From: Clostridiales bacterium
Lineage (GTDB): Bacteria; Bacillota; Clostridia; TANB77; CAG-508
DNA: 64,000 nucleotides
Direction of reading: 5' to 3'
NCBI GenBank assembly: GCA_004554705.1
Contig: SFKS01000001.1
Location: 8,186 to 72,185, forward strand
Under the pieces are notes generated by a model. It ran no database searches. It worked only from the letters and a program-made list of their open reading frames with translations, and was not told the origin of the DNA. Positions 1 through 53,792 of this stretch are shown here, piece by piece. Position 1 is the first letter of the stretch, and the number at the start of each line of letters is the position of its first letter. The position numbers were made by a program, and so were the translations under genes.

Positions 1-1
1 G

Positions 2-409
2 GATCCTGCTGCATTACATAAGCCAAAAAGATTTTTTGGTGCAGCAAGAAATACTGAAGATGCAGGAAGTTTGACTATCTTAGCAACCGCACTTGTAGAA
101 ACAGGAAGTAGAATGGATGATGTTATATTTGAAGAGTTTAAAGGAACAGGTAATATGGAGGTTCACCTAGATAGAGCTTTATCAGAAAAACGTATATTCC
201 CTGCAATTGATATAAACAAATCTGGAACAAGAAAAGAAGAACTGTTGCTTTCAAAAGAAGAACTAGAAACAATATTTGCTTTAAGAAAAACAATGTCAAA
301 TATGAATACACAAGAAATGACTGAACAAATTATGGAACAAATTGTAACAACAAAATCAAATGCAGAATTTTTAGAAAGAGTAAATATATTTTTAAAAAAT
401 AATAAATAG
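2..409 (+). CDS. rho: Transcription termination factor Rho, C-terminal part (5' end cut by the window edge)
   Basis: The frame is open from position 2. The translation ...[70 protein letters not shown]... matches the conserved Rho ATPase C-terminus. Confidence 0.9.
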
Positions 410-435
410 ATTAGCGAAATTATACTTGTAAGTGA

Positions 436-478
436 GTAGGGAGAGGAGAAAACAATACAAAACTTCTCTACTTGTTTA
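436..478 (+). terminator. Imperfect stem-loop GTAGGGAGAGGAG...CTTCTCTAC just downstream of the rho stop; candidate rho terminator
   Basis: An inverted repeat is seen 27 nt after the rho stop codon. The stem is imperfect and the U-tract is weak. Confidence 0.35.
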
Positions 479-644
479 CAATGCAACATTGCACAAAATC
501 AAAGTTTTGTGCAAAAAGGAATAGGAGTCAAAAAGAAAGTACCCATTTCAAGTACCTCCTCTCAAAATCAGCTATTCCTTGCTATTAGCTTATTTCAGCT
601 ATATTTTATAGACAATAAACTACATTACTTTTATATAAAAACTC

Positions 645-991
645 CTTAAAATCGATTCTGGAGCTTCAATATTTTGTGTTATGCCTGGTTGGATTTTTTT
701 TCATTATTGTAACTACATTTTTAAAAAAATTTTATATAACTTTAGATTATTTTATCAAAATTTCCTAAATCCTTAATTTTAAGTATTTTGCTTAATTTTT
801 TATCGATTCTCGTGCGTCGTTTTTTTAGCCATTTTTCAGCATTTTTAAAAAGTGCCTAAAATTAAGCATTTCTATAAGAATTACATTATAATTATTATAT
901 TTTATAAATTGAACATTAAAATTCAAACATATAACTTGTTAGATAAAATATTAAAATGCCTTAAAATTGATTTTGGTGCGTCTATAATATG
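645..991. repeat. Three to four degenerate ~30-bp direct repeats (consensus CCTTAAAATYGATTYTGGWGCKTCWATAWT) at ~157-bp spacing in an ORF-free region
   Basis: Full copies sit at 645-674, 796-819 and 958-991, with a shorter related copy at 854-882. The copies are about 75-85% identical. No ORF longer than 60 aa is present in 420-1168 on the + strand. Confidence 0.6.
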
Positions 992-1168
992 AAATTATAT
1001 ATTTGTTTTTCTTAATTTTAATGCTTCTAACATATAATTATCACCACCTTTTAAAATACAAATTACTATTTTATCTCTAATTCATATGTATAAAAAATCA
1101 AAAAAATTATACATGTTTTCAAAATATGTATAATTTTTTATGAATTTTGACAACTTACTATTTATCGT

Positions 1169-2239
1169 TTAATAATTTATTTTTACAATCCATTCTCCAT
1201 TTTTCTTTGAGTTTATTCTTTCTATCAATCCTTTTTCTTGCATTTCTCCCATATATTTTTTAACAGTTCTTAATGATTTGTTAATTTTATTGGCGATTTC
1301 TTCTTGAGTTATAGAAGGTTTTGCCTTAAGTATATTAATAATTGCCTGTTCTTCCAAAGTACAATTATTTACTTTTAAATCATCCTTATTTTCATCTTGA
1401 ATATAGTCGATATGTGTATATCTGTTTTTTAATTTATTATTACTACCTGTAAGTAAATTATAAAAAAATTTTTCTAAATATGATATATCTTCAAAAATGT
1501 TTTTTTCAAAGTTTTTGTAATTAGCTCTTACTAATGAATTTCTAAAATACCATGAATTATCTGCAAAAACTTCATCATTGATATTAAACCCAAATGTTCT
1601 TAAATATTTTATTATAAACACTGCTGTAGTTCTTGTGTTGCCTTCACAAAATGGATGTACTTGCCATATGTTTGAAGTAAATCTACATAAATGTTTTATT
1701 GACTCTTCTAACCCTAGATCTTTATATGAAAAATTTCTTTCTTGTTCAAAATCATACTCAATAGTATCTTTTATTGTTTCATATGATGAATATATTACTG
1801 TATCTCCATTTAATACCCATTCTTTTTTTGTAAAATTATAATCTCTATATTTTCCTGCTGTCCTTAATATTCCTGTAAATAATCGTTTATGAATATTTAA
1901 CAATTCTGTTATAGAAAAGTTAAATGCTTTTTCACTTAATATTTCTGTTATTCTAGTAGCTACCTTATCTGCTTCTTCACTTTCTTGTTCAAAATCTTTT
2001 CTGCTATTTTGTACTTCATAATACTCATTTATTCTTTTTTTTACTTCTTCTATATTAATTTTTCCTTCAATATGTTCTTTTGCTGTTTTTATTAGATATT
2101 TTGATGGTTTTAATCCATCTACATCTTGAAGTCCTATTGCTGTTTCCCACACTTTTGTTTTTTCTACTTGAGTTGGCTCGCCTTGTTTAATATATTCAGA
2201 TAATTCTAAATTCCAATCTTTTTTCTTATCCATAACCAA
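1169..2239 (-). CDS. Fic/DOC family protein with a C-terminal winged-helix DNA-binding domain; the Fic motif is noncanonical (HPFCEGNTRTTA)
   Basis: The Fic core motif HPFxEGN is present, but T replaces the second G and A replaces the final R of the canonical HxFx(D/E)GNGRxxR. The C-terminal ~70 aa resemble a MarR/wHTH fold (…LRTVKKYMGEMQEKGLIERI…). Confidence 0.8.
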   Translation of the reverse strand: MVMDKKKDWNLELSEYIKQGEPTQVEKTKVWETAIGLQDVDGLKPSKYLIKTAKEHIEGKINIEEVKKRINEYYEVQNSRKDFEQESEEADKVATRITEILSEKAFNFSITELLNIHKRLFTGILRTAGKYRDYNFTKKEWVLNGDTVIYSSYETIKDTIEYDFEQERNFSYKDLGLEESIKHLCRFTSNIWQVHPFCEGNTRTTAVFIIKYLRTFGFNINDEVFADNSWYFRNSLVRANYKNFEKNIFEDISYLEKFFYNLLTGSNNKLKNRYTHIDYIQDENKDDLKVNNCTLEEQAIINILKAKPSITQEEIANKINKSLRTVKKYMGEMQEKGLIERINSKKNGEWIVKINY

Positions 2240-2288
2240 ACCTCCTACAAATATAATTATACCATAATTTCAATATAATATCAAATTT

Positions 2289-2331
2289 AAAGTGCAAGTT
2301 TTGCACTTTATTTTTAAAAACATTGCACTTT
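2289..2331. promoter_or_regulatory. Perfect palindrome AAAGTGCAA-gtt-TTGCACTTT plus a third TTGCACTTT half-site 22 bp downstream, in the fic upstream region; putative operator
   Basis: The palindrome sits 50-90 bp upstream of the fic start. The same half-site recurs at 4087-4128 and 5503-5544. Confidence 0.5.
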
Positions 2332-2442
2332 AAAATATTTGTTCTAATTTATTATATAATATTCCCGTATATACTTCATATCCTCTTCTTAGTAATTCAA
2401 TTGCAACCATATTCTCATATCTTAATGACGTTCTATTAGATA

Positions 2443-3273
2443 TTAATAAATTGAAATATCCTTAACTTCTTGTTCTACTCCTGTTAAATCTAGTTTTCCA
2501 TTCATTCCATTAAATACGATAGGAAATGTTTCTTCAAAACCATTACATTCAAATTTTATACACAATTCTGGTGTAGTTGTTTCTGCTAAATAGTTATCTA
2601 AGATAATAAATGGAGTTGTATAATTTTTAATTAAAGTGTTATCTAATTCTAATTCTCCTTGTTCATTTATAAAACAACTATATAAAGTTATTTTCACATC
2701 TTCTGATTTTGGAATTATTACAAAGCGATTTCCTATTTCCTTTTCTCTACTATCAGCTGATCTATAATCTAATACTTCTAAATTATTATATGTATAATTA
2801 TTGTGAAAATTATTATGTATGAATTCATCAATATTACTATCTAATACATAACCTATTGCTAAACATTGATTATCATTGAAATTTATAGTTGTTCCATTTG
2901 TTGTATTAACTTCTACAGCTTTACCCTCAAGAAAATCTACTACATCTCCAGAAATAGTATCTAATGCATAACCTGTTTCATCATCAAATCTATAATGAGC
3001 AACTTCTTCATCATTCTCATCATAGACAATTGCTATAAATTCACTGCTTTCGTAATAGCAATAAATATCTTCTGGATCACAATTGTGATATTGACTTATT
3101 TTTTCTTGCCACCCTCTTACAGTCATACATTTAAATTCTACTGAATCTTCATATATCATTCCGTCTTTATCTGGAACAAACATAAAACATTTAACATAAA
3201 TTATTGCACATATTACACATATCGCTATTCCTATTAAAATACCAATTATCACTTTTTTCATTTTAGCCCTCAT
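2443..3273 (-). CDS. Hypothetical membrane-anchored protein (N-terminal TM/signal anchor, Cys-containing extracytoplasmic domain)
   Basis: The 276-aa ORF has the hydrophobic N-terminus KKVIIGILIGIAICVICAIIYV. No recognisable catalytic motif was found. Confidence 0.5.
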   Translation of the reverse strand: MRAKMKKVIIGILIGIAICVICAIIYVKCFMFVPDKDGMIYEDSVEFKCMTVRGWQEKISQYHNCDPEDIYCYYESSEFIAIVYDENDEEVAHYRFDDETGYALDTISGDVVDFLEGKAVEVNTTNGTTINFNDNQCLAIGYVLDSNIDEFIHNNFHNNYTYNNLEVLDYRSADSREKEIGNRFVIIPKSEDVKITLYSCFINEQGELELDNTLIKNYTTPFIILDNYLAETTTPELCIKFECNGFEETFPIVFNGMNGKLDLTGVEQEVKDISIY

Positions 3274-3295
3274 TTTCTTTTAATCTTTATTGTAT

Positions 3296-3341
3296 AAAAA
3301 GGAATAAAGAATCATTGCTAAAAGTGTCTTTATTCCTTTTT
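3296..3341 (-). terminator. Rho-independent terminator (AAAAAGGAATAAAGA ... TCTTTATTCCTTTTT)
   Basis: A 15-bp stem is flanked by an A-run and a T-run, directly after the stop codon of the 3347-3877 gene. Confidence 0.6.
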
Positions 3342-3346
3342 ATATA

Positions 3347-3877
3347 TTATTCAACTGAAAATGTTAAAGTATTTAATATATTTTGAACAACTTCTGAATC
3401 AAATGCTGCTTTTACTTCTTCTTGATTTGATGACATAATGTCTTTTGAATAAACACATAATGATGCATATACAGTATCTGATACAGGCAATACAACTTTA
3501 TATGTATCATATCCAGCATAATAATAAGAGAATCCATTAATTCCATTATATGTCACTTCTTTATATTCTTCATCATCTTTATGTTCTTCTTTTAAATTAT
3601 TTATATTTTCGCCACTCCAAAATTTATCAAATTGAATTGTAATGTTAAAAGTATCTCCTTTTAATATTGCATCATTACGAGATGTTCTAAAATCCTCTTC
3701 GTTAGTTGACAAAGTATAATTAGCTCCTTCTTCAAAACTTAAATTTATTGTTGCTTTTGTATCTTCATCATCCTTAAATGAAACTGTTTCAAGTTTTCCT
3801 TTTCCACATCCTGTTAAAGCAACTACGCTCATTGCTAAAATAGCAAAAATTAATATTATTGAAACTATTTTTTTCAT
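3347..3877 (-). CDS. Putative lipoprotein
   Basis: Signal peptide with lipobox ...VVALTGC; 176 aa with no conserved domain recognised. Confidence 0.55.
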   Translation of the reverse strand: MKKIVSIILIFAILAMSVVALTGCGKGKLETVSFKDDEDTKATINLSFEEGANYTLSTNEEDFRTSRNDAILKGDTFNITIQFDKFWSGENINNLKEEHKDDEEYKEVTYNGINGFSYYYAGYDTYKVVLPVSDTVYASLCVYSKDIMSSNQEEVKAAFDSEVVQNILNTLTFSVE

Positions 3878-4080
3878 ATTTTCCTCCTTTCCAATTATAT
3901 TATTTATATCAAATTTTTTTGAATTTGAATAACTACTTACTGTGTGTCTATTTTCTCTTTCAATTCTGAAATTTAATAGTTTTTTTCTTCTACATATCTA
4001 TCCTTTCTTAAGATATTACATATTTTAAATTTTGTTTCACTTTTTTTATAATTCTATTATATATTTTTTAAAAAGACATC

Positions 4081-4133
4081 GTCCCTGAGGTGCAAATTTT
4101 TGACTTTTTTTGCCCCAAAAGTGCAAATTTTGT
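4081..4133 (+). repeat. Copy A of a ~50-bp repeated element carrying two AAAGTGCAAAT-like half-sites 31 bp apart
   Basis: Sequence gtccctgaGGTGCAAATttttgactttttttgccccaAAAGTGCAAATttt. It is about 90% identical to copy B at 5495-5547. Confidence 0.7.
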
Positions 4134-4166
4134 TAATGCTCAGTAGTTCTAATTAAAATTGTATAA

Positions 4167-4209
4167 AATATTGTAGGGGCGCCCTTTGGGCGTCCCTACA
4201 ATATTTTAT
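4167..4209. terminator. Strong GC-clamped hairpin AATATTGTAGGGGCGCCC-ttt-GGGCGTCCCTACAATATT followed by a T-run
   Basis: The palindrome has 18-nt arms. A GC-rich core is unusual in this AT-rich intergenic DNA. It lies between divergent genes, so it is not an ordinary gene-end terminator. Confidence 0.55.
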
Positions 4210-4293
4210 GACCTACTAAACATTAACCAATTTTTTATATTGTCTTTTATTTTTCTCTATTTTGTGATAAACTAGATGTATCGTTGATAGGAG

Positions 4294-4938
4294 GTGTTTT
4301 TTTTGTATAATATTATTGTAATAGATGATCATCAAATGTTGAGAGATATGATTTCCGAAACATTAAGTGCCCAAGATGATTTAAATGTTGTTGCAACTTC
4401 TGGAAATGCTAAAGATTCTCTTGAGCTATGTAAAAAATTGAATCCAGATTTAGTATTAATGGATGTGTGTACTGAAAATAATTCAAATGGAATTGCATAT
4501 TCTAAACTTTTAAAAAAACAGTTTCCTAATGTAAAAGTTATTATTATGACAGGTATTTTGGATTTGAATTTTATAAATGATGCAAAAGAGGCTGGAGTTG
4601 ATAGTTTTATATACAAAAATATTAGTAAAGACTCGCTTATTATGACTATAAAAAATACTTTAGATGGATATTCTATGTATCCTAATGATAAAAATAATTT
4701 GTCAAAAGATAATATATTATCTAATTTAACAGATTCTGAATTAAAAGTTTTAACTTTATACTGCAAATTATTAGATAGAGATGAAGTAGCAAATAAACTT
4801 GGAATATCTGCAAGGACACTAAAATCTCATATTTCATCTATTTATGCAAAAACAGGTTATGACAATTTAGCTAAACTTTCTGTTTATTGCGTATCTAATG
4901 GTTTAATTGTTCCTAACCTTGAATCACCTGAAGAATAA
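4294..4938 (+). CDS. Orphan NarL/LuxR (FixJ) family response regulator; the likely true start is TTG at 4303
   Basis: The receiver domain has DD at the N-terminus, the LVLMDV phospho-acceptor Asp, a conserved T, and K in SFIYK. The C-terminus carries a LuxR-type HTH (SELKVLTLYCKLLDRDEVANKLGISARTLKSHISSIYAKTG). The RBS AGGAGGTG lies 6 nt before TTG at 4303. No histidine kinase is adjacent. Confidence 0.8.
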   Translation: MFFLYNIIVIDDHQMLRDMISETLSAQDDLNVVATSGNAKDSLELCKKLNPDLVLMDVCTENNSNGIAYSKLLKKQFPNVKVIIMTGILDLNFINDAKEAGVDSFIYKNISKDSLIMTIKNTLDGYSMYPNDKNNLSKDNILSNLTDSELKVLTLYCKLLDRDEVANKLGISARTLKSHISSIYAKTGYDNLAKLSVYCVSNGLIVPNLESPEE

Positions 4939-4972
4939 AATAACTGCTATTTCTAGCAGTTATTATTTTTTC
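4939..4972. terminator. Bidirectional rho-independent terminator (AATAACTGCTA-tttc-TAGCAGTTATT + T-run) between convergent genes
   Basis: A perfect 11-bp stem overlaps the stop codon of the minus-strand gene. U-tracts are present on both strands. Confidence 0.7.
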
Positions 4973-5448
4973 TTATTAAATATCTTTTCTAAAAAATCAC
5001 GAATACTGTTAATCTTGTTTCTTCTTATTGTGTAATCAGCATAAGTTCCTTCTTCTATCATCCTTTCACGATTTTTCGTTAACATATCATCTCTTTTGTC
5101 ATTTATAATCCTATTAGCAGTATCTTTTAAAGTGTCTTTAGCTATTTCTGCTCTGTTTTCATATAAGATATCCTTAGCAATTTTTACAGACTGTTTTTTT
5201 TCTTCTTTTGTCATTTTTTTTGCTTTTGGTGTGCATTTTGATACTAGCGTATTAAATCGGTTTAACAATTCTGATGTAGAAAATTGCTGTTCAAATTCTG
5301 AAGCACTACTACATTTCTCACCTAAAGCCTGTGTATCTTTAATAAACATATCCATTTCTGATTTTAAATCATCTGGAACAGAAAAATAATCTTCAAAAAA
5401 GTTAATTTTTGCATCTACACAATTTTTTACTTCATCTAACATAAGCAT
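4963..5448 (-). CDS. Hypothetical protein (161 aa, charged/helical); the likely start is Met3 at 5442
   Basis: This is an ORF call only. The RBS GAAAGGAG is 7 nt from the second ATG. Repeat copy B lies in its promoter region. Confidence 0.5.
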   Translation of the reverse strand: MLMLDEVKNCVDAKINFFEDYFSVPDDLKSEMDMFIKDTQALGEKCSSASEFEQQFSTSELLNRFNTLVSKCTPKAKKMTKEEKKQSVKIAKDILYENRAEIAKDTLKDTANRIINDKRDDMLTKNRERMIEEGTYADYTIRRNKINSIRDFLEKIFNKKK

Positions 5449-5494
5449 ACTCCTTTCATTATTACATTATACCATTATATTATTTCTTTTTGCA

Positions 5495-5547
5495 TTGTCC
5501 TTAAAGTGCAAATTTTTACTTTTTCTTGCCCCAAAAGTGCAAATTTA
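5495..5547 (+). repeat. Copy B of the ~50-bp AAAGTGCAAAT-bearing element
   Basis: Sequence gtccttaAAGTGCAAATttttactttttcttgccccaAAAGTGCAAATtta. It sits 50-100 bp upstream of the 4963-5448 gene start. Confidence 0.7.
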
Positions 5548-5828
5548 AATATTGTTGTAATACAGAAAGATTTTGCCCTAGTAAATCGTGATATTTATTT
5601 TTTATTTTAAGTAGGTTTTTCTCTTTTTCTAGTTTTTCTATATTTTCTATACTTGTTACTAGTTCTGTATTATTAAGTTTTATTTTTTCATTTTGTTCAT
5701 CTAATTCTTTTTTTAAGCAATATTCTTCTGTTATATCAAATGCTATTACTTCATTTTGGTTAATAATAAATAGGTAATATTTTTACTACTTTGTCAACAG
5801 TCTGAAATATAATTATTTAATATCTTTT

Positions 5829-7413
5829 TTATCTAGATTTTGGTCCTTCGCCAATAGTTGTATCTACATTATATAAAAGTGGTTCATAAACTGTTCCTAC
5901 AAACCAAATAGTTCCATCTTCTTTGTCTCTTATTAAAAACATATATGGTTTATCAAAAGTTAAATCGATTTCTTCTACAGGTACATCGTATAAATAGTCA
6001 AAAAAGCTTCCTGCTCCTGCTCCACCTATCCATGTTGCTGCTGCTGCTTTTATACCATCTTGTGTAAATTCTATATTTGCTTTGTGACCAGCGTCTGTTA
6101 TATATGTATCCTTGTCATCACAAATTCCAGTTAAATTTGCTTTCCCTTCTTCAAAAATATTAGTTATTCCTAATTGTTGTAGGTCTTTTTTTAGGTTTAG
6201 TTCATATTCAAATTTAAATTTTGGAATATATCCTGTAATTTTTGTTACTACTCCAGATTTAAAATTTTCTACTTTTAAATCCTTTAGTTTATTTATTATA
6301 TTATCTATTTCTGCTTTATCTATATTTTTAATATAGTTATCTAAATCCTCTGTTGTTGGCATTATACCAATATATTGTAATGTTGTTCCATTGTATTCCT
6401 TTAAATCCTTTGCAAATACTTTGATGTTATTATCTACATATATAGAAAAATCTGTGGTATAATCTACTCTCTTATAATTTGAGTTTATTGCTGGAATATA
6501 TGTTTCTAAATATTTATTTGCTTCTTCTTCTATATTACTATCTGTTAAATCTTTATTACAATACTGCTTAAACTCTTCTTCACTTATACTTTTTGCCCAT
6601 TTTTTAAATTCGTTTTTCACGGTTTCTCTTATATTTGCTTCACCTATTTCTTTAACTATATCATAGTTATTTATAGATGCTATAATTTCCATACCTGAAA
6701 CCTTTTGAGAGTTTTCACCAAATTTATGTTCCGTAGGGTTTTCTGGTCCTACCCAGTAAAATTTTTCGTGTTCATAGAAACATTCTACCGGGCGTCCGGG
6801 TTTTTATAAATTTATCTTCCCAGTCCATATCTATTGCTAGTGCATTTATCAACATAAAGACCGTATTCTTGTCAACTTCTTCAAATAAGTCCTTAATTAA
6901 ATTTAATGTTTTATTGCTTACCCAAGAGTTAAGATTTTCTGGGCTTGAGAAAGAATCAACTTTAACTTCAGCGTTATATTTGGTTTTTAATGTACTTATA
7001 TAACTATTTTTAATTTTATTTTCATATGAATCCTTTGCAAATAATGCATTGGCAAAAGCCATATTGCTATTTGAGTTGTATTTTTTTAAGGTTTCATTTC
7101 CTAGTACATTAGAAATTTGTAACTTTGATTCACCTTCTGTGCCTTCTTCTAGCATTTTTAATGCATATTTTATTGATAGTGGACTATAAATCTTGTTTGC
7201 TTTTTGATTCTCCATCTTTAAAAACTTAATATCAAAATTTGAAGTATCTCCTTTTATGGTTTCTTTGTTCTCACTCTCATTTTTAGGTGGATTTGCTAAT
7301 ATGTCAGTATTTGTTGTTTTGTTGTTACATCCTGTTAATAAGATAGTCATTAGCAATACCAATGCTGTAATTAAAATTTTTTCAAAAAATTTCTTCATTC
7401 TAAATTCCTCCAA
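5829..7413 (-). pseudogene. Serpin (serine protease inhibitor) lipoprotein gene disrupted by a frameshift near 6786-6803
   Basis: The N-terminal ORF 6772-7413 has a lipoprotein signal (LLTGC) and serpin N-terminal motifs (KIYSPLSIKYALKML, NSWVSNKT, VFMLINALAIDMDWEDKF). The C-terminal ORF 5829-6692 has a serpin reactive-centre-loop/hinge (GIKAAAATWIGGAGAG) and C-terminal signature (FDKPYMFLIRDKEDGTIWFVGTVYEP). The two ORFs join in one reading frame across a single-base shift at the GC-rich site CCCGGACGCCCGG. Confidence 0.75.
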
Positions 7414-7547
7414 TTATTTTTATAAATTTAAACTATAGTTAAATTTTATATTATATGTATTTTTTTGTCAATAAAAAGCAAAAAATTTTAAATAATTTTA
7501 AAAAAGTATTTTAAAATTATAAATTATATTATATAAATATATATGAG

Positions 7548-8543
7548 GTGTTATTTATGATTGATCGTAAAGAAAATCCTGAATTTCTTAATTCTTTTTT
7601 AGATTATACAATTACTATACTTAATAAATCTCCCAATACTATTAAAGAATATAATTATGATATATCAAACTTTTTAAAATATATAAAAAAAGAATTTAAA
7701 TTATCTGAAGAAAAAAATATAAAGAATATTAAAATAGATGATATGGATATTTCTGTACTTAAAAAAATTACTCTTCAAGATATTCATGGATATATTTCAT
7801 ATATGGCAAGAGAGTTTAAGAGTACTCCTGCTACACGTGCAAGAAAAATATCTTCTCTTAGAGTGTTTTTTAAGTATCTTACTAGTAAAGCAAAATTACT
7901 TGAAGTAAATCCTGCACAAGATTTAGAAACGCCCAAACTTGGTCGTAGAATGCCAAAATATTTGTCTCTCGAAGAAAGCAAAAAGCTTCTAGAGGTAACT
8001 CAAAGCCAAGACAATAGAAACAATATAAGAGATTATGCAATTATAACTTTATTTTTGAATTGTGGTATGCGTTTATCTGAATTAGTTAATATTAATATAA
8101 GTGATATAGATTTATCAGAAAGTAAGATGACAGTTATAGGTAAAGGTAATAAGGAACGTACTATTTACTTAAATAAAGCATGTATGAATTCTATTAATGA
8201 TTATTTATCTATTAGACCCCATGATAAGGTTAAATTTGATTCTCGTGATGCACTATTTTTAAGTGAGCGTAAAGAAAGGATTAGTAATAGAACTGTACAG
8301 GATATTGTAAAAAAAGAGCTAAAAAAAGCTGAATTAGATATAAAAAAGTATTCTGTTCATAAATTAAGACATACTGCTGCTACACTCATGTATCAATATG
8401 GTAATGTTGATATCAGAGCTTTGCAAGAGCTTCTTGGACATGAAAGTATTTCTACTACTGAAATATATACGCATGTAAATAATGAAATAGTAAGAAATGC
8501 TGTTGAGAATAACCCTCTTGCAACGGAAAATAGGAAAATTTAA
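7548..8543 (+). CDS. Tyrosine site-specific recombinase (phage-integrase/XerC-like); the likely start is ATG at 7557
   Basis: The C-terminal catalytic region is HKLRHTAATLMYQYGNVDIRALQELLGHESISTTEIYTHV (R...HxxR...Y). The RBS GAGGTG is 6 nt before ATG at 7557. Confidence 0.85.
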   Translation: MLFMIDRKENPEFLNSFLDYTITILNKSPNTIKEYNYDISNFLKYIKKEFKLSEEKNIKNIKIDDMDISVLKKITLQDIHGYISYMAREFKSTPATRARKISSLRVFFKYLTSKAKLLEVNPAQDLETPKLGRRMPKYLSLEESKKLLEVTQSQDNRNNIRDYAIITLFLNCGMRLSELVNINISDIDLSESKMTVIGKGNKERTIYLNKACMNSINDYLSIRPHDKVKFDSRDALFLSERKERISNRTVQDIVKKELKKAELDIKKYSVHKLRHTAATLMYQYGNVDIRALQELLGHESISTTEIYTHVNNEIVRNAVENNPLATENRKI

Positions 8544-8579: not shown

Positions 8580-8915
8580 TCAATCACCATCACCAAACGA
8601 AAGTCCCTTTACGGAGACCCATCCATATTGGGTCTCCACCCAATACGGATGGGGGCCGTCCATATACTCATACCTCCTTCCGGTAAGATACACTGTATCT
8701 CCAAAATACAGTTCATCTATGATTTCCGAGTTTAACCCCGGGCTTGCACGGACGTTTAACCGCTCATAAGAGACGGTTGCACTTTTCCCTACAGATTCGG
8801 GGTTATACTTTTCCCCGAATTGGGAAAAAAGGAGGATTGTGCTTCCGATGACAGCTACAACTGTCAAACAAAAGCTGAAAAATTTCCTTTTGTTTGTTAT
8901 TCTGTACTTTTTCAT
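8580..8915 (-). CDS. Membrane-anchored bacterial SH3 (SH3b/SH3_3) domain protein, GC-anomalous
   Basis: The ORF has an N-terminal TM/signal segment and an SH3b-like core (SYERLNVRASPGLNSEIIDELYFGDTVYL...GWVSVKGL). It is about 45% GC against about 27% for its neighbours. The RBS is GGAGAAAG. Confidence 0.7.
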   Translation of the reverse strand: MKKYRITNKRKFFSFCLTVVAVIGSTILLFSQFGEKYNPESVGKSATVSYERLNVRASPGLNSEIIDELYFGDTVYLTGRRYEYMDGPHPYWVETQYGWVSVKGLSFGDGD

Positions 8916-9091
8916 ATAGTTTCTTTCTCCAACTTAGCGTTAGGTAGTTGGCACCTTGCGGGTCAGACCTATTATACTCTGCCCTAGTAACTATTTACTT
9001 ACTTATATTATACTATTATTTATGTCAAAATGCAAATTTAAAGGAAATAATCTCTTTTATTAAAAGAAGGTTATTTCCTTTTGCAGTAGCC

Positions 9092-9388
9092 TTAGATTAT
9101 TGGAATCATTAATTCTTGGTCAATATGCAAATTGCTTGATTCTAAATTGTTTGTATTTTTAATATCAAAAACTATATATCTAATATCTTTGTTTTTATAA
9201 TAATCATTGCTTGTTTGTAAATCACTTGCAATACTCCATAAAGTATCACCTTTTGAAACTCTTATAGTTGTATATTCAGTTTCTTTATGTGAAAAAGTGC
9301 TTTTTGCACATATAGTGGATAATGCAAAAACCATCAATAGAATACAACATATACTTTTTATAAATTTCTCAAAATTAACTATTTTCAT
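9092..9388 (-). CDS. LysM-domain membrane protein, YneA-like putative SOS cell-division inhibitor (start taken at the internal ATG at 9388)
   Basis: Signal/TM segment FIKSICCILLMVFALSTICA followed by a LysM domain (YTTIRVSKGDTLWSIASDL). The RBS GGAGG is 7 nt before ATG at 9388. The upstream TTG-initiated extension in the ORF track overlaps the promoter -35 element. Confidence 0.7.
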   Translation of the reverse strand: MKIVNFEKFIKSICCILLMVFALSTICAKSTFSHKETEYTTIRVSKGDTLWSIASDLQTSNDYYKNKDIRYIVFDIKNTNNLESSNLHIDQELMIPII

Positions 9389-9402
9389 ACATTTACCTCC
9401 TG

Positions 9403-9457
9403 CGAACAATATTTCGCTCGCTAAGTATATTATAAACGCTTGTTCGTAATTTGTCAA
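9403..9457 (-). promoter_or_regulatory. Consensus sigma-A promoter (TTGACA-17-TATAAT) with two LexA (Cheo) boxes
   Basis: On the minus strand, TTGACA is at 9457-9452 and TATAAT at 9434-9429. Box 2, CGAACAAGCGTTTA (9446-9433), overlaps the spacer and -10. Box 1, CGAAATATTGTTCG (9416-9403), sits between the TSS and the RBS. Both match GAAC-N4-GTTC closely. Confidence 0.7.
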
Positions 9458-9522
9458 TAGTTTTTTTGAAAAAATTTAGTTTTTTTAGAAAATGTTGTTA
9501 TACACGGAAAAATCCTGGTATA

Positions 9523-9550
9523 CAATAAAAAAGACAACGCTTGGTTGTCT
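9523..9550 (-). terminator. Rho-independent terminator of xerD (AGACAAC-gcttg-GTTGTCT + U-run)
   Basis: The hairpin lies 13 nt downstream of the xerD stop, followed on the minus strand by TTTTTTATT. Confidence 0.7.
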
Positions 9551-9562
9551 CTACATAAAATT

Positions 9563-10444
9563 CTATGCTCTTGGATGAGCTTTTTTATATATATTTTTTA
9601 AACTATCATCTTGAAATTGCATATATACTTGTGTTGAAGATATGTCTGAATGTCCTAGCATACTTTGAATTGATTTTAAATCTGCACCATTTTGCAATAA
9701 ATGAGTTGCAAAAGAATGTCTTAATACATGTGGTGTTATTTCTTTTGATATATGGGCTTGTTCTTTATAGTATTTTATTATTTTCCAAAAGCCTTGTCTG
9801 GTTAGCCTTTTTCCATTTACATTTACAAATAATGCTTGTTCATTATCATCTTTTATCATATTAAGTCTAGCTGTTTCCATATATTCTTGTAAAGCATGTA
9901 GTGACATTTTGCCTAAAGGGATTATTCTTTGCTTATTTTCTGTCTTACAGGTTACTGAAGAATTTGTTAAGTCTATATCGCTAATATTTAAAGATATAAT
10001 TTCAGTAACTCTCATACCTGTTGCATATGCAATTTCTAACATTGCTTTGTCCCTGATGCTTTTTAGATCTTCTCCTTTAGGTTGGTCTAATAGTAATGAT
10101 ACCTCTTGAGAAGATAAAACACTAGGTGCTTTTTTTTCTATTTTAGGAGATTGAATACCTTTTGTAGGATCTTCTTTAACTATTTTGCTTTTTGCTAAGT
10201 ATTGATAGAACAGCCTAATTGACGCTAGGTGTCTTGAAATTGTAGAAGATTTTTTGTTTATTTTATGTAGATACTCTAAATAGTTTATTATATCTTCATT
10301 TTTTACGTTAACATAGTTAATATTATTTTCTATTATATATTCTTTATATTGTAAAATATCTCTTTGATATGATTCTAATGTGTTCTTTGATAGCTTTTTA
10401 TCTACTTTTATAAATTCTAAAAATTTTTTTATATCTTTATCCAT
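9563..10444 (-). CDS. xerD: Tyrosine recombinase XerD-type (chromosome dimer resolution)
   Basis: The C-terminus HVLRHSFATHLLQNGADLKSIQSMLGHSDISSTQVYMQ closely matches the XerD/RipX signature. The N-terminal core-binding domain has ...QRDILQY... . Confidence 0.8.
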   Translation of the reverse strand: MDKDIKKFLEFIKVDKKLSKNTLESYQRDILQYKEYIIENNINYVNVKNEDIINYLEYLHKINKKSSTISRHLASIRLFYQYLAKSKIVKEDPTKGIQSPKIEKKAPSVLSSQEVSLLLDQPKGEDLKSIRDKAMLEIAYATGMRVTEIISLNISDIDLTNSSVTCKTENKQRIIPLGKMSLHALQEYMETARLNMIKDDNEQALFVNVNGKRLTRQGFWKIIKYYKEQAHISKEITPHVLRHSFATHLLQNGADLKSIQSMLGHSDISSTQVYMQFQDDSLKNIYKKAHPRA

Positions 10445-10528
10445 TTTTTGATCCCCTTCGTAAACATAATTTCATGGTATAGTTATATCAAATAAACATA
10501 AAAATGTAAATAGATTTTTAAAATATTC

Positions 10529-11932
10529 TTAAAAATTTTTTTCTCCTTTTAAATACCATTTATGCTCTGAGGCTATTTTTACTTCTATCACTTGTCCTAC
10601 AAGGCTTTTAGAGCCTTCAAAATTTACTATTTTGTTTGTAGTTGTTCTTCCTGTTAGCATTTTATCATTATTCTTGCTTGTGCCTTCTACTAATATTTTT
10701 TGAATTGTTCCGATATATTTTTTATTATTTAATTCAACTTGCTTTTCAAATAATTCTTTTAATCTATCAAATCTCTTGTGCTTAATTTCCTCTGGTATCT
10801 GACTTTCCATTTTATCTGCTGGGGTTCCCTTTCTTCTTGAATATATGAACATAAATATTTGCTCAAAATTAACTTTTTTAACAACATCTAGAGTGTCTTG
10901 AAAATCCTTCTCGGTTTCTTCTGGGAAGCCTACTATTATGTCTGTTGAAAATACTGCTTCTGGTATTTCTGTTTTTATTTTGCTAACTAATTCTAAATAT
11001 TGTTCTTTGGTATATTTCCTATTCATTTTTCTTAATACTTCTGTACTTCCAGACTGTAAAGGTAAATGAATCAGTCTTGATACCTTTTTACATTCTTTTA
11101 TTGCTTGTATTACATCTTCTGTAAAATCTTTTGGATGTGGAGATATAAATTTAATAACCTCGATTCCTTGAATTTTATTTACTGCTCGTAATAAGTCTGC
11201 AAATGAAGTTATGTTGTCACTTCTATTTTCTTTTTTCTCTGTTCTCATATATGAATTTACATTTTGACCAAGCAATGTTACTTCTTTATACCCTTCTTTT
11301 GATAATTGTTCTATTTCAGCTATTATGTCTTCTGGATTTCTGCTTCTTTCTCTTCCTCTTACGTATGGAACAATGCAGTATGAGCAGAAATTATTACAGC
11401 CATACATGATTGTAACAGAAGCAGATTTATTACTATTTCTTTTTATTGGTAATCCTTCATATATTTCTCCATCTATATCTAAAATATCTTTTATTTTATT
11501 CTTTTCAGATATAACTTTATATAAATCTTCTGGAAACTTATGTAAAGTATGTGTTCCAAATATGATGTCGATATATGGATAGCTTTCTTTCAATTTGTCC
11601 TGCATATGTTTTTCCTGCATCATACATCCGCATACTGCAATTATACTATTATTTTTTTGCTTTATCTTTTTAAGTTCACCAACTTTACCAAATAGTTTTT
11701 CTTCTGCATTTTCTCTAACACAGCAAGTGTTTAGAATATAAATATCTGATACAGTTCCATTTTTTGCAGGTTTATAGCCCATTTCTTCTAGCATTCCTGC
11801 AAGCTTTTCAGAATCATTTTCATTTAATTGGCATCCCATTGTTAGTATATTATAATATTTTTTTTCATTTTTCATCATTTCTTTTACTTTTCTAATATAT
11901 TGTATTTGTTCTTCTATTACTTCTTTATTCAA
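10529..11932 (-). CDS. miaB: tRNA-2-methylthio-N6-dimethylallyladenosine synthase MiaB (radical SAM methylthiotransferase)
   Basis: An MTTase N-terminal domain (ILTMGCQLNENDSE), the radical-SAM CxxxCxxC motif (CNNFCSYC) and a C-terminal TRAM domain are all present. Confidence 0.9.
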   Translation of the reverse strand: MNKEVIEEQIQYIRKVKEMMKNEKKYYNILTMGCQLNENDSEKLAGMLEEMGYKPAKNGTVSDIYILNTCCVRENAEEKLFGKVGELKKIKQKNNSIIAVCGCMMQEKHMQDKLKESYPYIDIIFGTHTLHKFPEDLYKVISEKNKIKDILDIDGEIYEGLPIKRNSNKSASVTIMYGCNNFCSYCIVPYVRGRERSRNPEDIIAEIEQLSKEGYKEVTLLGQNVNSYMRTEKKENRSDNITSFADLLRAVNKIQGIEVIKFISPHPKDFTEDVIQAIKECKKVSRLIHLPLQSGSTEVLRKMNRKYTKEQYLELVSKIKTEIPEAVFSTDIIVGFPEETEKDFQDTLDVVKKVNFEQIFMFIYSRRKGTPADKMESQIPEEIKHKRFDRLKELFEKQVELNNKKYIGTIQKILVEGTSKNNDKMLTGRTTTNKIVNFEGSKSLVGQVIEVKIASEHKWYLKGEKNF

Positions 11933-12005
11933 TTTCTTATCCTCCTAAAGTAAAACACTATTAGTTATTATAACATATTTATATCTAGTTTTACAATAAA
12001 AAGAA

Positions 12006-53438: not shown

Positions 53439-53444
53439 TATATG

Positions 53445-53792
53445 AGAGTATATCTATAAGCCGGGTTCTGTCTTGAACAGTCATTTATCTAGGATATATA
53501 TTACTACATATCTCAAGCCACCAATTCAGAAGATGACGAGCAGTCTTAGCCTTCTTTTTAGGTGTTGCTCCAGATGGGGTTTACATTGACCCACGTTTGT
53601 CTCCAAACTGGCGGTAAGCTCTTACCTCACCTTTTCACCTATTGCTCTAGCAAAGCTAGGGCTGTTATTTTCTGTTGCACTTTCCTTAAGGTTACCCTCA
53701 CTGGACGTTATCCAGCATCATTGCTCTATGGAGCCCGGACTTTCCTCATGTAGACCCTTGCGAGTTCTATACGCGACTGTTCGATATACTCT
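53445..53792 (-). ncRNA. rnpB: RNase P RNA (ribozyme component of RNase P, Firmicute type B)
   Basis: The minus-strand transcript contains the universal P4 elements GAGGAAAGUCCGGGCUCCAUAG and ACAGAACCCGGCUUAU. The P1 helix pairs GAGUAUAUC (5') with GAUAUACUC (3'). The region is GC-rich and structured, with no credible ORF. Confidence 0.88.

Follow-up and report, generated by a model that had tools for sequence, protein, structure and literature searches.

A palindromic core and a one-sided repeat arm downstream of rho: a putative attachment site of Xer-like tyrosine recombinases in gut Clostridia

In lambda-type attP/attB systems, inverted core sites surround an overlap and are accompanied by arm-type accessory sites, and Int carries an N-terminal arm-binding domain. 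In streptococci, ICEs accrete together with cis-mobilisable elements (CIMEs) at one att site. The accessory DNA of cer and psi is about 180 bp long and binds PepA with ArgR or ArcA. These cer and psi accessory sequences have been reviewed (PMC5357621), XerS/difSL and XerH/difH are single-recombinase modules (PMC1914069, PMC5357621), and IMEX are found at dif, as CTX, TLC and VGJ in Vibrio and LME-1 with XerL in Legionella (PMC9765430).

In this study, we analyse the spacer that separates rho from fic at the left end of a 64-kb window (the whole stretch of DNA that was examined). Between the stop codons of rho (409) and fic (1169), the longest ORF has 46 aa, which agrees with a preliminary description of this spacer as ORF-free. 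On balance, we read positions 489–1100 as one functional unit, namely the attachment site that a family of Xer-like tyrosine recombinases uses on the chromosome, in which three repeat units (R1–R3) serve as accessory arm (Table 1). The core and R strings were absent from the literature by string search, and a keyword search gave no published description of the site. A minus-strand mini-ORF ending in the spacer (MGTFFLTPIPFCTKL) was rejected, because not all copies of the non-coding region retain its start codon; the stretch with the start and the ribosome-binding site is poorly conserved.

Table 1. Features of the putative attachment site and its surroundings (window coordinates).
Feature	Position	Strand	Basis or remark
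rho 3′ end	1–409	+	Translation; conserved on the left of the site
Long, imperfect hairpin (probable rho terminator)	426–481	+	Fold −16.5 kcal/mol, z = −2.4
Recombination core	489–514		10-6-10 palindrome with perfect arms; insertion junctions inside the spacer
Core left arm, TTGCACAAAA	489–498		
Core 6-bp crossover spacer, TCAAAG	499–504		
Core right arm, TTTTGTGCAA	505–514		
Conserved box outside the right arm (AAAGGAATAGGAGTCAAAA)	515–549		Conservation in 61 diverse loci
TAGGAGTAAAAT box			Named beside the core and R1–R3
R1 unit	610–676	+	Upstream box AGACAATAAACTACATTAC (610–628) and 23-mer CTTAAAATCGATTCTGGAGCTTC (645–667)
R2 unit, truncated in this strain	770–851	+	ATCGATTCTCGTGCGTC (802–818) and T tracts remain
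Tail of the R2 unit, GTGCCTAAAATTAAGCATTT	852–871	+	Moderately conserved; not a clear fourth copy
R3 unit	928–990	+	Inverted upstream box CATATAACTTGTTAGATA (928–945) and 23-mer CTTAAAATTGATTTTGGTGCGTC (960–982)
Deletion junction	1084–1110		Second fic-type gene (316–357 aa) here in 8/10 sister contigs
AT-rich 19-bp hairpin (1101–1139) and former cassette boundary	1101–1147		Fold z = −6.9
Fic/HTH gene, first gene of the inserted accessory segment (~1100–7500)	1169–2233	−	Pfam families
xerX, Xer-like tyrosine recombinase of the host (331 aa) and candidate enzyme for the core	7548–8543	+	NCBIfam scores
xerD, bona fide	9563–10444	−	TIGR02225 351 bits, cut-off 329.6

The core has the organization of tyrosine-recombinase att sites, in which inverted arms flank an overlap of 6–8 bp. 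Its palindrome, already pointed out in the preliminary description, is unique within the window and folds with a z of −3.9, and its arms co-vary across species (as TTGCGCAAAA/TTTTGCGCAA and TTGCGTGAAA/TTTCATGCAA). A further palindrome described at 482–493 is real, but it corresponds to the outer part of the left arm rather than to a separate element, and it is not kept in locus L328. The crossover point is demonstrated in a same-species set of ten contigs encoding an identical Fic protein, whose flanks are 93–100% identical except for more diverged extra copies of the non-coding region. In these contigs the site is empty or carries a sortase/ubiquitin-like module, a helicase module (flanked by extra non-coding copies of 80–82% identity), a T4SS conjugative element or combinations of them. 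Four unrelated insertions all join within TCAAAG and each junction reads arm-TCAAAG-arm, the overlap being shared and the arms exchanged. Comparison with related genomes, with at least five occupancy states within one species, thus bears out the idea of an att site or insertion hotspot. The term remnant must be dropped from it, as the core is intact, and so must the proposed tie to the adjacent accessory segment: this segment (fic to serpins), which sits between the non-coding region and the recombinase gene, is itself an insertion and is absent in L328. No second core bounding it near xerX was found in the window. An origin of the att site from a tRNA was also discarded, since ARAGORN detected no tRNA in the 64 kb, and the resemblance of TCGATTC to a T-loop was given up.

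Conservation continues to the right of the core. Among 61 diverse loci, its mean from the core to +31 was 0.85 and that of ATAGGAGTCAAA (+24 to +35) was 0.75, against a background of 0.51. Blocks with values of 0.75–0.87 versus 0.51 were recognised both in the most diverged copy and in these 61 loci, and correspond to the core and its flank, R1, the upstream box, R2 and R3; column conservation of the R1 unit was 0.6–0.8 (61 loci) and that of the R3 block (+490 to +519) was 0.77. The repeated motif, first described as about 30 bp long, proved to be real. The 23-bp R motifs centre on the near-palindrome AAAATCGATTYT, all with a conserved box upstream and T tracts on the flanks. In 64 kb a 17-mer repeat pattern occurs only at the three R copies, but it was derived from those same copies; hence the repeat was tested separately and without that bias by self-alignment, in which the best 44-nt direct repeat (633 vs 948) has 34/44 matches and surpasses all 200 dinucleotide shuffles (mean 27.9, sd 0.96, maximum 31).

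The R2 unit is considered truncated at 801/802 because every sister strain carries 42 more bases just 5′ of the second copy. On alignment with these strains, the 42-bp deletion, which took the upstream box of R2 together with 6 nt from the start of its 23-mer, is private to this strain. The copies are therefore spaced 151 and 164 bp apart in the window and 193 and 164 bp apart in the sister strains, and the regular 157-bp periodicity reported for them does not hold. The intact R2 23-mer, CTTAAAATCGATTCTCGTGCGTC, is the best conserved element and is found exactly in L006 and in more than 130 loci. At 854, where a shorter copy had been placed, the sequence is moderately conserved, but its likeness to R is weak and it is better regarded as the tail of the R2 unit. 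Equally, Tandem Repeats Finder revealed no long-period array, only micro-repeats of 9–22 bp; the copies are not head-to-tail repetitions of one unit and the DNA between them is unrelated and does not align, which gives no support to a degenerate tandem array. As to iteron-like sites, protein binding would still be the best reading of R, but three copies 151–193 bp apart, not in helical-phase tandem and with no rep gene, do not agree with replication-origin iterons, which are direct repeats of 17–22 bp clustered in helical phase beside a rep gene and an AT-rich unwinding element. Some other candidates were rejected: R as a degenerate copy of the core (local alignments no better than shuffles, of which 929–3157 in 5000 reached the score), R or the non-coding region as a relic of an integrase gene (the match of R to xerX at 8229–8246, TTAAATTTGATTCTCGTG, was reached by 89/1000 shuffles, and tblastn E-values were at least 0.5) and a helical phasing of T tracts across the whole region, which was weak (reached by 13/300 shuffles) and is visible in the consensus only locally, around R2.

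The linkage of R to the core, with fixed side and orientation, is observed in loci from many species. It must be noted that the metagenome loci were chosen for carrying R, so that these figures start from R and not from the core: a half-site lies upstream of R, on the same strand and in the same orientation, at 115–448 bp (median 351) in 93 of the 101 loci, and one further locus has a half-site with a variant spacer. The linked loci comprise 73 with the full palindrome and 20 with weak-arm junctions at the core. The 0.6-kb non-coding region with R1–R3 is always on the same (right) side of the core, and both the three-unit layout and the distance to the core are conserved across species. R units without a recognisable core nearby occur in 7 of 12 viral loci and in 7 of the 101 metagenome loci with the R motif; some of these units have a degenerate half-site about 45 bp upstream, and in phage contig L219 a coreless unit lies between holin and endolysin.

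To the right of the accessory segment lies xerX, whose active-site motifs (GMRLSEL, HKLRHTAAT, LLGH and IYTHV) are intact. Its NCBIfam scores are 240 bits for XerC (cut-off 335), 219.7 for XerA (cut-off 220), 175 for XerS (cut-off 267) and 106 for TIGR02249, the IntI family (cut-off 265). Orthologues of 63–87% identity stand directly right of the non-coding region in nine loci, among them L328, in which xerD is 2.5 kb from the core. We consider xerX the candidate resident enzyme acting on the core. The phage integrases at the site are relatives of xerX with 35–46% identity. In IMG/VR phages, attP consists of TTGCACAAAA, the spacer and a weak arm, in both orientations relative to the spacer, and follows by 190–470 bp a gene pair encoding the integrase and p93, a 93-aa partner protein; attP with the same overlap was found beside the integrase gene in L092, L093, L109, L135, L188 and L116/L130. 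Two types were distinguished. Type 1 phages (L092, L093) have an R unit between p93 and the core; type 2 attP (L109, L135, L188/L116, L121, L136, L221) has no R unit, and type 2 phages have a ATAGGGGATAAAAT, similar to the conserved flank, outside the P arm. The p93 gene is absent from the window and the host loci, and neither p93 nor the non-coding region had a match among isolate phages and plasmids.

These traits resemble a lambda-type att in the inverted core, the 6-bp overlap identical in phage and host, the position of int beside attP and the repeated arm motifs, which in R1–R3 are conserved in position. However, the arm is one-sided, 0.6–1 kb long and also present on the chromosomal partner, and the chromosomal site, used in both orientations, is perfectly palindromic. 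In addition, the Xer-like integrases and xerX have only SAM-like and catalytic domains and no lambda-type arm-binding domain; therefore, another protein would have to read R. From their position and conservation, we infer that R1–R3 are accessory (arm) elements of the recombination site, although their spacing of 150–190 bp, which is large for arm sites, the type 2 attP sites without R, the R units with no recognisable core nearby and the absence of p93 from the host loci speak against this model. They would be bound by a sequence-specific, probably dimeric, protein that shapes the synaptic complex and would control direction or partner choice. This is close to cer and psi, with which the site shares a Xer-type core, accessory DNA on one side and, in the model proposed here, selectivity through architectural proteins; unlike them, its arm is three times longer and has its own 23-bp motif.

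The cassettes found at the site follow common rules. In more than 20 arrays, all start with the right arm and the non-coding region and end in a short weak arm, all their genes point toward the non-coding region, and the full palindrome is always retained at the rho end. A recombinase gene is lacking in the sortase, helicase, Fic2, ToxN and AAA_14 cassettes, and the weak-arm classes are common to different cargo. In the window, the second fic-type gene is missing, as it is in L081. A former cassette boundary can be recognised here by comparison with L254, L270 and L336, in which ATAAATTTTG-GTTTGTATTA-TCAAAG comes after the 1101–1139 hairpin and closes the fic2 cassette; in the window, this hairpin leads instead into the 3′ end of fic.

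In the mechanism that we propose, the site would comprise the 26-bp core, with two 10-bp inverted arms and the 6-bp TCAAAG, and a one-sided arm of about 0.6 kb with R1–R3. Incoming elements would bring one good and one weak arm around the same spacer, and recombination within TCAAAG would insert the element and regenerate the full palindrome at one end; in this way, arrays of elements would accumulate between rho and the recombinase gene. The users would form two groups. The first would be temperate phages and a conjugative element, of which at least the phages would supply an integrase and its 93-aa partner, and the second integrase-less cassettes (Fic, ToxN, helicase, sortase and others) that would depend on a recombinase in trans, most likely xerX. 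Accretion of ICEs and CIMEs is similar in its tandem arrays and in the integrase-less, att-bounded elements beside an ICE (in L087 the ICE adjoins the helicase module); it differs in that the cassettes here are more numerous and diverse, their weak-arm classes are shared by cargo and the recombinase is conserved and host-encoded.

More tentatively, the rho-side palindrome, the R-repeat arm and xerX might form a host-encoded, integron-like cassette platform of gut Clostridia, in which xerX captures, excises and reshuffles integrase-less cassettes, mostly of toxins or defence functions, the R1–R3 arm of 0.6–1 kb takes the role of attC, and the primary site may also serve as a single-recombinase dif. 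As in integrons, the arrays consist of co-oriented, mostly promoter-poor, integrase-less cassettes, each with its own recombination site, and insertion takes place at a primary site with a resident tyrosine recombinase gene close by. In contrast, xerX is not IntI, the cores are palindromes of double-strand type and not folded attC hairpins, the recombinase gene is at the far end of the array instead of beside the primary insertion site, and every cassette has a non-coding arm of 0.6–1 kb. The imperfect hairpins of 57–141 bp that mark attC at cassette ends were not found; the cassettes end in weak arms of 10–20 bp and the 26-bp core, with a conserved hairpin in one arm class only.

A different explanation, which we hold to be rather unlikely, is that the palindrome is the dif-like chromosome dimer-resolution site of this clade for xerX, with the inserted elements as IMEX-type exploiters and the R1–R3 arm giving resolution selectivity. 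The 10-6-10 arms with inner CAAAA/TTTTG resemble the inner arms of difSL and difH, which have A4/T4 (PMC5357621), but they match the dif of E. coli or B. subtilis no better than by chance. Likewise, the recombinase gene adjoins the site and xerD is 2.5–9 kb off, but the presence of a true XerD points to a canonical XerCD/dif elsewhere. Scans for canonical dif, difSL and XerD arms found nothing between −9 kb and +64 kb: over these 73 kb, the sequences closest to the 28-bp dif consensus with its XerD arm, TTATGTWAAMT, still differ from it at 9 positions, and they all lie away from the palindrome. In this regard, canonical-dif prediction failed in two Clostridium genomes (PMC3025954). Genes converge on the site: to its right, about 95% of them are on the minus strand over 64 kb, and to its left about 78% are on the plus strand over 18 kb; however, those from −8 to −18 kb are in mixed orientation, and the GC skew merely follows the coding strand and was discarded as evidence of a terminus. 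The retention of the full palindrome at the rho end, the insertion of integrase-less elements and the precedent of LME-1/XerL in Legionella (PMC9765430) would also favour a dif-like site, but the phages here encode their own integrases and do not need to hijack Xer, and the linkage to rho across species is that of an ordinary attB.

The comparison with the described modules is similarly divided. With IMEX, the site shares integrase-less elements at a short palindrome with one good and one degenerate arm, the regeneration of the full site, the build-up of arrays and a host Xer-family recombinase nearby; it differs in its large accessory arm and in the many users that have their own integrase, and a dif role or a position at the terminus would be putative. 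With XerS/difSL and XerH/difH, it shares a recombinase gene beside its site and near-symmetric arms with A4/T4 next to the spacer, but xerX is under the XerS cut-off, a genuine xerD coexists with it, and about 0.6–1 kb of conserved non-coding DNA lies between site and gene.

If the reading of an attachment site with an accessory arm is true, widespread uncultured low-GC gut Clostridia have a dedicated chromosomal docking site and their own Xer-like recombinase, and phages, conjugative elements and integrase-less cassettes (Fic and ToxN toxins, helicases and other accessory genes) gather there. The site gives exact boundaries of mobile DNA in metagenome assemblies of these organisms, and the 26-bp core with a defined arm is a compact candidate landing pad for genome engineering. 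It is also a test case for the use of long accessory DNA by Xer-family enzymes without arm-binding domains and makes chromosome-dimer resolution in these bacteria directly testable.

Two further explanations concern R itself, and we give little credence to either. According to one, R1–R3 would be separate attachment sites of another phage family with the same unit of about 75 bp, and the spacer a multi-site landing pad. Host loci and coreless phage contigs (L214–L220, L277, L287, L307) indeed share the R2 unit, with identity over 23–32 bp and similarity over about 75 bp; in L287 and L307 the unit precedes a Xer-like integrase gene by about 390 bp, and in L214 it is located between the lysis module and int, the usual place of attP. 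Nevertheless, none of about 130 copies of the host region has an insertion bounded by R copies, the rearrangement breakpoints within the non-coding region in L290 and L298 are not at R, and the conservation across species of the three-unit layout and its distance to the core is unexpected for scars.

According to the other, which is about equally doubtful, the R units would be transcription signals (terminators, insulators or promoters) separating cassettes or serving the flanking genes. All cassette genes are directed at the non-coding region, and the unit of L219 is 25 nt before the endolysin ribosome-binding site, but the orientation of the unit relative to neighbouring genes varies with the context. 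A T run comes after R2, and AAAATCGA..TCGATTTT stems are possible in some copies; neither conservation nor covariation supports this hairpin, for which the terminator model of R was rejected. The intact region has no terminator-like site, its promoter-like sites are at chance level (9 vs 6.5 ± 2.2), and what is conserved is the sequence itself, position by position over 23 nt. Finally, that this ORF-free, AT-rich region with repeated motifs is a small RNA (as the preliminary description had also suggested), a decayed tandem repeat or a chance similarity is hardly credible, as the repeat similarity exceeds all shuffles, a tandem array is absent, Rfam scans gave no match, 54 diverse units have no conserved structure (RNAalifold, −0.39 kcal/mol, 0 covarying pairs) and over 90 loci from many species keep the motifs in register.

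With respect to the left side of the site, 33 of 120 metagenome loci have a rho C-terminus of 65–100% identity to the left of the core. In a scan of genomes with the rho C-terminus, the closest among the matches listed was 76% identical, and L006 alone was useful there. The imperfect rho-proximal hairpin noticed earlier is real and is probably the rho terminator; L006 has a canonical terminator at the equivalent position.

The interval between rho and the Fic/HTH gene contained no ORF longer than 46 aa, which confirms its description as ORF-free, and no tRNA, Rfam family or long-period tandem array was found in it. The preliminary description had noted a motif repeated here about every 157 bp. 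The repetition was genuine, with copies at 645–667, 802–818 and 960–982 (R1, R2 and R3) and no other occurrence in the 64 kb. Given that the motif pattern was derived from its own copies, the best 44-nt direct repeat in 420–1168 was examined separately; it paired 633 with 948 at 34 of 44 positions, above every one of 200 dinucleotide shuffles of the same segment (mean 27.9, sd 0.96, maximum 31). The regular spacing was not sustained. Alignment with sister strains revealed that 42 bp are missing between 801 and 802 in the window, so that R2 is truncated and the copies stand 151 and 164 bp apart, where every other strain has 193 and 164 bp. The loss is strain-specific and takes in the upstream box together with 6 nt at the start of R2; the R2 unit is intact even in the nearest contig, L081 (98% identical). 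The palindrome that had been pointed out downstream of rho (the core) proved to be perfect and present in a single copy in the window (Table).

The exact window Fic protein was encoded on many gut-metagenome contigs, ten of which were compared. Their flanks were 93–100% identical to the window, except in additional, more divergent copies of the non-coding region. Between rho and fic, one contig was window-like, three had a second fic-type gene (fic2) at window 1084–1110, and the remainder carried a module of sortase and ubiquitin-like genes, a helicase module of the ResIII/DEAD type or a conjugative element bearing ParAB and T4SS genes. The interval is thus variable rather than conserved within the species. 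BLAST breakpoints fell at window 498–504, within the palindrome, and, as read from these sequences, the junction pattern (Table) bears the hallmark of conservative site-specific recombination in which strands are exchanged within the 6-bp spacer. Membership tests placed the core among tyrosine-recombinase att cores, and this direct sequence evidence makes it very probably a recombination site. Another variable segment lies left of rho, about 5–8 kb from the site, between dtd and spoIIM (L086/L088, L342/L343); it carries relaxase (Mob_Pre) remnants together with unknown genes and indicates more than one insertion point in the neighbourhood.

Features of the rho–fic region, arm sequences at the core (window orientation) and conservation over 61 non-redundant loci (background 0.51)
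Feature	Position	Strand	Left arm	Spacer	Right arm	Conservation	Remark
rho 3' end	up to 409	+					left border of interval
Perfect 10-6-10 palindrome	489–514		TTGCACAAAA	TCAAAG	TTTTGTGCAA		single occurrence in window
Fic/HTH gene	2233 down to 1169	-					right border of interval
True XerD	9563–10444						neighbour of xerX
Empty site			CATTGCACAAAA	TCAAAG	TTTTGTGCAA		
Sortase module, rho-side junction			CATTGCACAAAA	TCAAAG	AAATGTTGCAC		
Sortase module, far junction			CATTGCGCAAAA	TCAAAG	TTTTGTGCAA		
Helicase module junction			GGTTTGTATTA	TCAAAG	TTTTGTGCAA		
Conjugative element junction			GGGGCTATTATTA	TCAAAG	TTTTGTGCAA		
Weak-arm class			ACATTTG-GTTTGTATTA				
Weak-arm class			GGGG-GCTATTATTA				
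Weak-arm class			TAGCCCAGTA	TAAAAG			
Weak-arm class			TGTCGCGGCA				
Core and flank	up to +31 from spacer					0.85	
R1	about +146 to +165 from spacer					0.6–0.8	
ATTTTATCAAAAT	+252 from spacer					0.77	
AACAAGTTATATT	+309 from spacer					0.77	upstream box
R2 unit	+327 to +380 from spacer					0.87	loci selected for R2
R3	+490 to +519 from spacer					0.77	

The non-coding region accompanied the core. Extra copies of window 498–1096 (80–82% identical) were found beside the helicase module in sister strains, and in the most diverged of them the best-preserved blocks were the core and the three repeats. The intact R2 23-mer CTTAAAATCGATTCTCGTGCGTC was exact in a Clostridia MAG (L006) whose rho is only 73% identical; its order was rho, terminator, a co-varied palindrome TTGCGTGAAA-TCAAAG-TTTCATGCAA and the repeats. 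A metagenome scan with the 23-mer retrieved at least 120 loci, and linkage to a half-site was counted in the 101 with at least 520 bp upstream. Among the matches listed, 93 of these 101 had a right half-site 115–448 bp upstream on the same strand (median 351; 73 with the full palindrome and 20 with a weak left arm), one of the other 8 had a variant spacer, and a rho C-terminus (65–100% identity) lay left of the site in 33 loci.

Contig scans also located half-sites beside Xer-like integrase genes in viral contigs. These integrases (323–331 aa, SAM-like and catalytic domains) were 35–46% identical to the product of xerX, the Xer-like recombinase gene at window 7548–8543, and about 30% identical to the window XerD. 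After every integrase came a small conserved protein, p93 (93–97 aa; L092 7877–8158, L093 2139–2432, L109, L116, L121, L135, L136, L188 and L221), matched by no Pfam or PHROG family, and then, in order, a strong TTGACA-N17-TATAAT promoter, the good arm TTGCACAAAA, the spacer and a weak arm, with an XRE-type repressor gene beyond. The promoter behind p93 reads across the phage attachment site (attP) to the repressor gene, a connection that integration breaks. Seen from the integrase side, the spacer was CTTTGA in L092 and L093 (type 1) and TCAAAG in L109, L135, L188/L116, L121, L136 and L221 (type 2), and these two orientations imply that the palindromic chromosomal site takes elements either way round. 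Two type 2 prophages, L121 and L221, are integrated next to a host copy of the non-coding region. In L255, L257, L302 and L318, the minus strand to the right of that region carries two tandem Xer-like integrase genes and a p93 homologue, possibly a variant of the element family with two recombinases. The non-coding region and p93 had no match in GenBank phages or PLSDB plasmids.

In more than 20 metagenome loci the site was present as two or three direct copies. Copy 1 was the full palindrome; the left arm of later copies was weak and belonged to one of a few recurrent classes (Table), one of which closed at least six different cargos. The cassette unit (1.6–6.6 kb) began with the right arm and 0.6–1 kb of non-coding region, continued with between one and four genes, which with one exception lay on the minus strand, and closed with a weak arm. 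Cargos included ToxN toxins, Fic/RhuM proteins, an AAA_14/DUF4143 ATPase and a helicase. The ToxN-family (type III toxin-antitoxin) products were a 186-aa ORF in the cassette from 294 of L288 and a 174-aa ORF in that from 2098 of L336 (Pfam E = 8e-50 and 1e-38, respectively). The fic2 cassette ended in other loci with hairpin-ATAAATTTTG-GTTTGTATTA-TCAAAG; this hairpin is window 1101–1139, followed by the fic 3' end at about 1147, and window 1101–1147 looks like a decayed cassette boundary.

In L328, where the rho C-terminus has 100% protein and 95% DNA identity to the window, the order was rho, core, non-coding region, a xerX orthologue (87% identical) and homologues of window 9040–11999 (LysM, XerD, MiaB). 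xerX stood directly behind the non-coding region in 8 further loci (63–85% identical). Judged from this placement, window 1100–7500 (fic to serpins) is evidently itself an insertion between arm and xerX. The catalytic motifs of xerX are intact and its nearest solved relatives are XerA and XerD; it scored below the XerC, XerS and integron-integrase cut-offs and, for XerA, 219.7 vs. a cut-off of 220. Between xerX and the LysM gene, an ORF of about 110 aa (8585–8917, minus strand) encodes an SH3-like secreted protein in a GC-rich kilobase (about 35% vs. 23–30% over most of the window); its absence from the otherwise syntenic L328 makes it probably a recent insertion. Upstream of fic lie the palindrome TAAAGTGCAAGTTTTGCACTTTA and ACATTGCAC, the latter equal to the outer part of the left arm (window 2288–2310 and 2323–2331), and ACATTGCRCAAAATATTTTACTACC precedes xerX or its remnant by about 200 bp (L328 3791–3815, L290 about 2474); these sites could be recombinase half-sites or operators. 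In L089 (417–9791), the counterpart of window 3347–7413 (serpin, serpin, 159-aa gene, response regulator, 176-aa gene) is tandemly duplicated.

The adjacency of xerX and xerD, together with genes converging on the site and one full palindrome always retained, raises the question of whether the core is a dif site, the more so as canonical dif was not found from -9 kb to +64 kb. However, per-gene GC skew tracks the coding strand, gene orientation is mixed in the left flank between -8 and -18 kb and the true XerD suggests a canonical system elsewhere, so we regard a dif function as unlikely. Legionella LME-1/XerL (PMC9765430) is a model case for settling this question.

With respect to the repeats, R units centre on the near-palindrome AAAATCGATTYT, their upstream box AGACAACAAACTATATGTCT forms an inverted repeat in its own right, and the T tracts around R2 are phased. 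A small-RNA locus, as proposed initially, found no support: no Rfam family was matched, 54 diverse R2 units gave no consensus structure (-0.39 kcal/mol, no covarying pair) and single-sequence folds of R units were mutually inconsistent. The intact region had no terminator-like sites, and promoter-like sites were at chance level. Similarity of R to the core, as a degenerate copy, or to integrase genes was not significant. On these results, double-stranded DNA sites are the best reading of the R units. Their fixed side, orientation and distance, their conservation, and the fact that every cassette and type 1 attP contain them would fit accessory elements of the recombination site, a role to which we give an even chance; against it count type 2 attP sites without R units and phage integrases without an arm-binding domain. 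R units also occurred in some phage contigs without a clear core, a few with a degenerate half-site about 45 bp upstream. The earlier suggestion of a degenerate tandem array failed in the membership tests, as did iteron origin, integron, canonical dif and structured RNA.

The nearest known systems to this recombination site are lambda-type att sites, IMEX at dif, XerS and XerH modules, cer/psi accessory DNA, integrons and ICE/CIME accretion. Literature searches found no occurrence of the core and R sequences by sequence string in the papers searched and no published description of the site by keyword. Elsewhere, seryl-tRNA synthetase appeared as two adjacent ORFs (279 and 140 aa) in L342 (7987–9274) and L343 (601–1888), which may point to misassembly, a frameshift or a pseudogene. 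In the window, RNase P RNA class A (53441–53792, minus strand, 279 bits) alone among Rfam families exceeded its gathering score.
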